Below are positions 4,966 through 6,095 of a stretch of 6,095 nt of DNA, piece by piece. Source of the stretch: a virus (lineage: Duplodnaviria > Heunggongvirae > Uroviricota > Caudoviricetes); the IMG/VR virus record IMGVR_UViG_2534682255_000031. One strand, 5' to 3'. The position numbers and the translations under genes are program-made. The notes beneath the pieces are model-generated. The model had not been told where the DNA came from and ran no database searches. It saw nothing but the letters and a program-made list of their open reading frames with translations. The number at the start of each line of letters is the position of its first letter. Positions within the stretch are counted from its first letter, which is position 1.

Positions 4966-5406
4966 TCAGGCGGTGAAAGTACCAATAAAGGTTTCTACTT
5001 TGCTGTCCTTGAATTTCTCAACAAGCAGATCACGAAATTCGTTAGCCATTTCTTCCTGCACCGCCTCCAGCTGAATAATGCGCAGAACCAGTACCGGACG
5101 ATCGCCAGTGATAATGCTGAGGCGTAATTTAAACGGACGTTCTTTCAGACCTTCAAACGGAATGCATTTAAATTCAAATGCCACTGGCATAATGTCTTTG
5201 GTCTTCGCTTCGACAGACTCCATCAGGGAGCGTTTGCCGCTGAAGTCATTATCTTCAAAATCAGCGGTCTGGTTTGCTTCAATCGTGATTTTACGGACCG
5301 CCGCAGCCGCTTTTGTTGCCTGAATGGTGTCACCATTAGCATCAAAGCCCACAAGGTAGTCGGCCCAGTCTTCAATCCATTCTGGTTGCCGCCAATCGTA
5401 TCGCGT
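4966..5406 (-). pseudogene. 5'-truncated ORF of unknown function (C-terminal portion, at least 146 codons) lacking a credible start
   Basis: The frame is open from the TGA at 4968-4966 up to 5406. The first in-frame start-like codon is a GTG at 5352 and there is no SD. The frame is closed at 5407-5409 by sequence belonging to the opposite-strand J fragment. Confidence 0.5.
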
Positions 5407-6095
5407 TTATTGACCCGGCAAACGGGAATGAAACGCCGATGTTTGTGGCGCAGGGCAACCAGATATTCATGAACGACGTGTTCCTGAAGCGCCTGACGGC
5501 CCCCACCATTACCAGTGGTGGAAATCCACCGGCATTTTCCCTGACACCGGATGGAAAGCTGACTGCTAAAAATGCGGATATCAGTGGTAACGTGAATGCG
5601 AACTCCGGGACGCTCAACAACGTCACGATTAACGAGAACTGTCGGGTTCTGGGAAAACTGTCCGCGAACCAGATTGAAGGCGATATTGTCAAAACGGTCA
5701 GCAAGTCTTTCCCCCGCACGAGCACTTATGCCAGTGGCACCATCACGGTAAGAATCAGTGATGATCAGAAATTTGACCGGCAGGTCATGATACCGCCAGT
5801 GTTATTCCGCGGTGGTAAGCATGAGAATTTCAACAGTAATAACCAACAGTCATACTGGTATTCAACCTGCCGGTTAAGAGTGACCCGCAATGGTCAGGAG
5901 ATTTTTAATCAGTCCACGACGGATGCTCAGGGCGTATTTTCCTCAGTTATAGATATGCCTGCCGGACAGGGGACGCTGACACTGACATTCACCGTATCTT
6001 CATCAGGAGCGAATAACTGGACACCAACAACCAGTATCAGCGATCTGCTGGTTGTGGTGATGAAAAAATCCACAGCAGGTATCAGTATCAGCTGA
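5340..6095 (+). pseudogene. C-terminal fragment (about 230 codons) of a lambda J-like tail tip / host specificity protein; frame opens at 5340, recognisable J similarity from about 5400, first ATG at 5439, TGA at 6093-6095
   Basis: Translation ...[73 protein letters not shown]... matches my recollection of the lambda J C-terminal region nearly residue for residue, and the ending ...[16 protein letters not shown]...[10 protein letters not shown] parallels the J C-terminus. Full-length J is over 1100 aa, so this is a fragment with no upstream start or RBS. Confidence 0.8.

Follow-up and report, generated by a model that had tools for sequence, protein, structure and literature searches.

The stretch of DNA analysed here (the window, 6,095 nucleotides at full length) raises the question of how the remains of an early-region gene on the minus strand came to abut the 3′-end of a J tail-tip gene on the plus strand. 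An earlier sequence-only reading had placed a deletion junction at 5353–5410 and attributed it to a lambdoid prophage that lost everything from its early-left region through most of J. We put a probability of roughly 90% on the reading that one internal deletion, of ~30–32 kb, produced the junction in a lambdoid prophage that sits within the 5′-end of dusA (features in Table 1).

Table 1. Features of the window, with coordinates, strand and the evidence for each.
Feature	Position	Strand	Basis
DUF2713-family chromosomal gene, between zur and dusA, outside the prophage	1–957	+	PGAP annotation, syntenic loci
Native dusA 5′-end, orphan; left boundary (attL) of the element	1319–1423	+	Annotated pseudogene
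Small phage gene, 178-aa product, function unknown	1567–2103	+	PHROG 4350 or 2741 match (pair of genes)
Small phage gene, 57-aa product, function unknown	2300–2473	+	PHROG 4350 or 2741 match (pair of genes)
PrtN-family excisionase-like gene, last of the leftward early operon	2521–2802	-	Pfam PF11112, E = 3e-23; PHROG 1300 "excisionase", E = 1e-39
3′-5′ exonuclease fragment without N-terminus	2839–3198	-	Pfam PF16473, profile positions 76–177 of 177 only
65-aa ORF formed by the second deletion: N-terminal 51 codons of a 138-aa gene plus out-of-frame exonuclease sequence	3147–3344	-	Comparison with the O111:H8 prophage
SAM-dependent methyltransferase pseudogene, internal TAG at 3680–3682	3491–3964	-	PGAP "internal stop"
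Early gene, 116 aa, function unknown	3961–4311	-	RefSeq protein accession as in the O111:H8 prophage; family match
yfdR, 5′-deoxynucleotidase	4302–4838	-	RefSeq protein accession as in the O111:H8 prophage; family match
yfdQ (DUF2303) 3′ half, 419 of 825 nt; N-terminal 406 nt deleted	4966–5384	-	Homology to intact yfdQ stops at 5384
Deletion junction, 5-bp microhomology TTCTG common to the yfdQ and J sides	5380–5384		Three-way alignments; half-match end points
J tail-tip gene 3′-end, 716 nt, ~21% of the gene, without its own start codon	5380–6095	+	97.5% identity to PhiR29_2 J 35416–36131; Pfam
J-fragment allele crossover	5681–5685		Mismatch maps

Both reading frames behave as the sequence-only reading had described them. 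The minus-strand frame of the ORF ending at 4966 stays open to 5406, with a stop at 5407–5409, and holds no ATG, GTG or TTG in 5353–5406; the first such codon after the stop is a GTG at 5352. The plus-strand J frame runs from 5340 (stop at 5337–5339) and meets its first ATG at 5439. The claim that both genes are truncated is borne out by Pfam matches that cover C-terminal parts only. The minus-strand product aligns with profile positions 133–269 of 269 of DUF2303 (PF10065, E = 3e-38), and the plus-strand product aligns with positions 51–138 of 139 of Phage_Tail_Tip, followed by Ig_GpJ_C and the J C-terminal receptor-binding domain. With this partial rather than full-length profile match, the 4966–5384 product is an N-terminally truncated member of the YfdQ/DUF2303 family, and the J fragment is far from full length, at 716 nt against ~3.4 kb in intact genes. 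RefSeq likewise marks both fragments as pseudogenes, the DUF2303 gene as "missing N-terminus" and the phage tail tip protein gene as "missing N-terminus".

Comparison with intact lambdoid phages, which had been suggested as a way of finding the breakpoint and any microhomology, places it inside the proposed interval. In the phage search, the yfdR-yfdQ match stops at window position 5384 and the J match begins at 5380. Positions 1966–3145 of PhiR29_2 (PV340557.1), a complete lambdoid phage, correspond to window 4205–5384, and its positions 35416–36131 to window 5380–6095; both matches have 97.5% identity and share one strand. In the three-way alignment, the window tracks yfdQ to ...CCATTCTG and tracks J from TTCTGGTTGCC... 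on. The yfdQ end point at 5384 is also seen against a 99.95%-identical relative (the O111:H8 prophage discussed below). A junction probe of 196 nt, centred on the junction, was run against 5426 complete E. coli genomes. Among the sampled rows other than whole-probe matches, yfdQ half-matches stop at probe base 100 (5384), and J half-matches begin at bases 93–98, mostly at 96 (5380). For the J side of the microhomology, the reference was a set of alleles with 100% identity to the window in the 101 bases that follow. The open minus-strand frame continues for 22 bases past 5384, and these are J-derived sequence read in antisense, where the frame stays open by chance.

Intact relatives keep the two flanks in the same order and orientation, with the missing modules between them. 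In PhiR29_2, the flanks lie ~32.3 kb apart, and the interval from yfdQ to the J breakpoint holds yfdP, cI, cro, replication genes, the nin region, Q, lysis, terminase, head and tail genes, and the initial 2.7 kb of J. At the very dusA site of the remnant, prophages in strains 01_3327, MS6198 and O111:H8 99.1145 share its left end, comprising the orphan dusA fragment, small rightward genes, the PrtN-family gene and the exonuclease gene, and carry an intact 825-nt yfdQ, past which all three continue into full immunity, replication and lysis modules. The small rightward genes are the same two in 01_3327 and O111:H8 and partly different in MS6198. Right arms were compared for 01_3327 and O111:H8 99.1145, MS6198 being covered by its left arm only, and both show complete head and tail modules, then J, lom, tail-fibre genes, effector genes, dinI, int and dusA, with a gap of ~30.3 kb between the equivalent breakpoints. 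PhiR29_2 and the dusA prophages have the same early-left genes as the remnant (yfdR, yfdQ and others) and, within the arms compared, a J-lom-stf tail end, with gene order and orientation conserved. Unlike the remnant, PhiR29_2 has its integrase beside the early-left operon and a different integration module. Together, these relatives argue for a lambdoid prophage that lost its early-left region through most of J, as the sequence-only reading had it, and the dusA prophages provide the comparison of syntenic loci that it had called for.

The closest left-arm relative is the prophage of O111:H8 99.1145, which matches window 3191–5384 with one mismatch in 2194 bases (99.95%), the match stopping exactly at 5384. 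Its J-lom segment is only 67–71% identical (~71% to the window at the 3′-end of J), while its tail-fibre segment and its dinI-int-dusA end are 96.5 and 98.2% identical to the remnant, respectively. The best intact match to the O157-type J-lom reaches 96.9%, and all matches of at least 99% to it are the remnant itself. Since no direct parent matching in both arms was found, the parental J sequence at the break was deduced from other alleles. This O111:H8 prophage is itself damaged, with IS1203 copies and frameshifted integrase and portal genes, and lamB in the same strain is split by an ISVsa5-family element (L007 4989–7667 and 28784–29512, L008 6161–7374, the two extracted loci of this strain, for both observations).

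The unequal likeness of the two arms could also be explained by an origin from two prophages, for example tandem dusA phages from which a deletion took the right-hand portion of one phage, the att site between them and the left-hand portion of the next, with the same product. Tandem prophages are known in O157, as in the case of Sp17a/Sp17b in the account of the Sakai prophages (Asadulghani et al., 2009; PMC2669165). We consider this origin improbable. Lambdoid mosaicism predicts arms with different histories inside one phage and is the simpler account, and the O111 tail-fibre segment and dinI-int-dusA end do match the remnant. Two prophages would moreover require a larger deletion and an extra integration, and no trace of a middle att site is present.

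A single deletion within one prophage joined a point near yfdQ codon 135, on the leftward side, to a point ~716 nt before the end of J, on the rightward side. No IS, att-like site or inserted DNA was found at the junction, where the flanks abut directly and, beyond the 5 bp, the parental sequences have nothing in common. The short shared sequence is present once in the product and is not part of any longer homology, a combination that fits the sequence signature of illegitimate, microhomology-mediated recombination and not that of a homologous, site-specific or IS-driven event. As only TTCTG is shared, and IS, att-like site and inserted DNA are all absent, such recombination within one prophage is the most likely mechanism. 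The 5-bp overlap is short and is a weak point of this mechanism; by our own estimate, which is not the output of a tool, ~0.5% of random junctions would be expected to share at least five bases. Two other routes were considered and rejected: an IS-mediated deletion, as there is no IS at the junction, and homologous recombination between prophages, given only 5 bp in common.

The deletion removed the pL side of the early operon, yfdP, the cI/cro immunity region, replication genes, Q, lysis genes, and every head and tail gene as far as the final fifth of J. It left attL, the two small genes, the excisionase-like gene and decayed early genes on one side of the scar, and the J fragment, lom, tail-fibre genes, three nleG-type genes, dinI, int and attR on the other. 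Judged by its gene content, with repressor, replication, lysis, terminase, head and tail genes absent from the junction and from the rest of the element, the remnant would be unable to produce phage and would likewise no longer be inducible. Excision might still take place, given an intact int, an intact excisionase-like gene and two intact att sites. The remnant would persist through its cargo genes.

The chromosomal setting agrees with integration in dusA. The window corresponds to a locus on the E. coli O157:H7 chromosome that is bordered by zur and the DUF2713-family gene at one end and by dusA at the opposite end; strain TW14359 matches window 1–5716 at 99.86% identity. Window 1300–1422 is 100% identical to the 5′-end of the uninterrupted dusA of K-12 and thousands of other genomes. 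A 27-bp att core, TCGGTTTAGCGTTGCACCAATGCTCGA, lies at 1396–1422 within the orphan dusA fragment, and its second copy is in the 5′-end of the functional dusA ~11 kb rightward (~24251–24277 of the extracted O157 locus L002). This functional dusA is preceded by a phage-borne copy of the dusA start that is 82–85% identical to the native one. The remnant is thus bounded by 27-bp direct att copies, at a site where phages are known to integrate. Two genes to the right of dusA, qorA is split by a Mu-like prophage (mom, com) in strain Balcarce_24.2 (locus L001, 25755–30094) and is whole in TW14359.

To the right of the window, RefSeq places lom, two tail-fibre genes, three DUF1076 (nleG-type) genes, a capsid-gene fragment, a dinI-like gene, a tyrosine integrase and the functional dusA, in this order. 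The three consecutive DUF1076 genes, of the nleG type of type III effector, follow the tail-fibre genes of the remnant at L002 20520–22517, outside the window. Effector sets differ in the intact dusA prophages, with nleG7 and espS in 01_3327, and espM2, an nleG-type gene and espW in O111:H8. The capsid-gene fragment between the effector genes and dinI is found in the O157 remnant (L002 22548–22667) and in the intact 01_3327 prophage (locus L006, 13672–13758), so that it predates the big deletion.

The sequence-only reading had also recognized a xis-like gene at the far end of the leftward operon. This identification holds, in that the gene belongs by sequence, through its PHROG 1300 match, to an excisionase family; its product is a putative excisionase. 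A search of solved-structure sequences with its PrtN-like protein gave no match. What has to be refined is its relation to the integrase, which is not its neighbour: PGAP annotates a tyrosine-type recombinase/integrase directly upstream of dusA, outside the window, in both L001 and L002, so that the two genes stand at opposite ends of the element, the excisionase-like one at attL and the integrase at attR. Because intact relatives are arranged alike, we regard this layout as a trait of the phage type and not as a rearrangement. In KplE1, too, int and the excisionase gene lie at opposite ends. The two small rightward genes, which as a pair match PHROG 4350 and PHROG 2741, occupy the same position in intact dusA prophages. 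Between the second of them, which encodes the 57-aa product, and the convergent PrtN-family gene there is a G+C-rich hairpin, AAAACCCGCCTTCAGGCGGGTTTTTT, at 2490–2520, which looks like a bidirectional terminator.

The distribution of the junction bears on its origin. The whole 196-nt probe was recovered from 202 of the 5426 complete E. coli genomes, and this identity points to a single event, with a deletion that probably arose once and was inherited by a sublineage of O157:H7. A 33-mer across the junction is absent from the GTDB species representatives. Four IMG/VR contigs contain the junction; all align to the remnant, and in two the contig boundary coincides exactly with window position 1, where the DUF2713 gene begins.

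The same records bear on a natural and functional adjacency, in which a phage or satellite would encode short YfdQ C-terminal and J C-terminal proteins back to back. The GTG at 5352 and the ATG at 5439 could in principle start products of 128 and 218 aa, and the C-terminal receptor-binding domain in the J fragment is complete. Both candidate starts, however, are internal codons of the intact genes, and the 218-aa product is not on record among called genes. Neither strand of 4800–6095 showed a sigma-70-like promoter, and no Shine-Dalgarno-like sequence, as read by eye, stands ahead of the GTG. The yfdQ-J adjacency itself occurs in 0 of 50,697 phage records, and the junction contigs in IMG/VR align to the remnant, as described above. 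A natural adjacency is therefore very improbable. An intact phage with these two ends adjacent, or a functional start within 5353–5406, would have spoken against a deletion in the sequence-only reading; there was no such phage among these records, and neither a start codon nor a promoter-like site in that interval. As neither truncated gene keeps its own start codon or a visible promoter, the junction would be a silent scar without function.

There is next to no chance that the junction is an assembly artefact from repeated J sequences, even with up to 14 J-related places per O157 genome and a window J tail after 5684 that no complete genome joins to the junction, since 202 complete genomes, produced by many laboratories, carry the identical junction, which excludes an artefact there; a chimera is conceivable only for the 5685–6095 tail of the window.

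The single-deletion remnant has decayed further within the window. Comparison with the O111:H8 prophage reveals a second deletion, of 1463 bp, whose junction at window 3191 joins positions 21892 and 23356 of that prophage with a 1-bp overlap. It removed the exonuclease N-terminus, DUF551 sequences and most of the 138-aa gene, which is intact in the O111:H8 prophage at 23093–23509. The methyltransferase gene has been interrupted by a single C-to-T change at 3681 (TGG to TAG), the sole mismatch to the O111:H8 prophage in 3191–5384. This second deletion and the nonsense mutation, together with a J tail that after 5684 is a different allele, refine the earlier picture of the locus.

The allele change in J is abrupt. 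The window equals TW14359 up to 5684, after which 164 aligned positions differ, and its J tail from there on is a different allele from that of all 202 junction-bearing complete genomes. Window 5682–6095 is 100% identical to a common intact J allele, such as gpJ of O103:H2 strain 12009, which has at least 99% identity in 1184 records. The TW14359-type J fragment and lom, at an identity of at least 99%, are found in 201 complete genomes, and no complete RefSeq E. coli genome holds window 5000–6095 in one piece. By Pfam, the crossover falls just ahead of the receptor-binding domain. A 53-mer across it (5660–5712) was dropped as a chimera signature, as it also occurs in an unrelated intact J gene (IMG/VR, L014).

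Other copies of the remnant vary in other patches, such as those of strain Balcarce_24.2 and the IMG/VR contig L011, and all copies are identical over 5380–5500. Because the copies agree there and differ further on, the junction has one origin and the change in distal J came later. The patchy distal J may reflect either gene conversion from resident J genes or mis-joined repeats in draft assemblies, perhaps including the source of the window. A more far-reaching version, which we offer as tentative and consider rather doubtful, is that gene conversion lets the dead J fragment swap sequence with complete J genes in co-resident lambdoid prophages, so that the fragment serves as an allele store for the receptor-binding domain. 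If this were true, active phages could draw on or overwrite J receptor-binding alleles held in remnants.

The remnant can be related to elements already described. "Phage region 21" of E. coli O157:H7 strain SS17 is described, in the passage devoted to it, as a region of ~12 kb between yjbK (zur) and dusA that neither Sakai nor EDL933 has (Cote et al., 2015; PMC4321836). It has the same chromosomal site and the same size as the remnant, and SS17 is among the genomes that match window 1–5716 at 99.9%; the J tail of SS17-type genomes differs from that of the window after 5684. That passage gives location and size, and the breakpoint, the microhomology and the missing content come from the present analysis.

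Elements with a dusA-associated integrase (DAI) insert in the 5′-end of dusA, supply a new 5′-end and leave the original at their far boundary (Farrugia et al., 2015; PMC4482086). The remnant shares this architecture, with insertion in the dusA 5′-end, a new 5′-end, an orphan native end outside and an integrase adjoining dusA. The published att consensus for these elements is 21 bp long, and the repeat of the remnant measures 27 bp. The remnant differs as a degraded lambdoid member that lacks ~30 kb and has its integrase outside the window.

O157 commonly carries defective lambdoid prophages that have undergone deletions of this sort (Asadulghani et al., 2009; PMC2669165). Like the defective prophages Sp1–Sp18 of Sakai and CPS-53/KplE1 of K-12, which are lambdoid, were disabled by deletions, frameshifts or nonsense mutations and kept their cargo, the remnant is a disabled lambdoid element with its cargo retained, and it has lost more than most of them. 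CPS-53/KplE1 of K-12 carries yfdP-yfdQ-yfdR, and K-12 yfdQ is a 97% match to the yfdQ half of the junction probe. Identity with one of the Sakai elements Sp1–Sp18 was rejected, as the descriptions of Sp1–Sp18 consulted for this comparison do not mention the locus (PMC2669165) and the SS17 passage gives the region as absent from Sakai (PMC4321836). The one prophage-like element of Sakai that was checked, SpLE5, was rejected as well, as it lies at a different locus (ECs5242–5252).

The scar is real and precisely mappable, yet it represents ordinary prophage decay: its kind is known, the fragments are annotated and the ~12-kb region has been published. The nucleotide-level breakpoint, the microhomology and the intact relatives at the same site were worked out here, and nothing in them is unexpected. 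The 33-base junction sequence could mark the O157:H7 sublineage that carries the dusA remnant. The patchy variation of J among strains suggests that remnants join in recombination among the many J copies of O157, which bears on genome assembly and host-range evolution and was already to be expected. The locus offers a clean example of a lambdoid prophage stripped down until it mainly carries cargo (lom and nleG-type effector genes), with int, the excisionase-like gene and both att sites kept.
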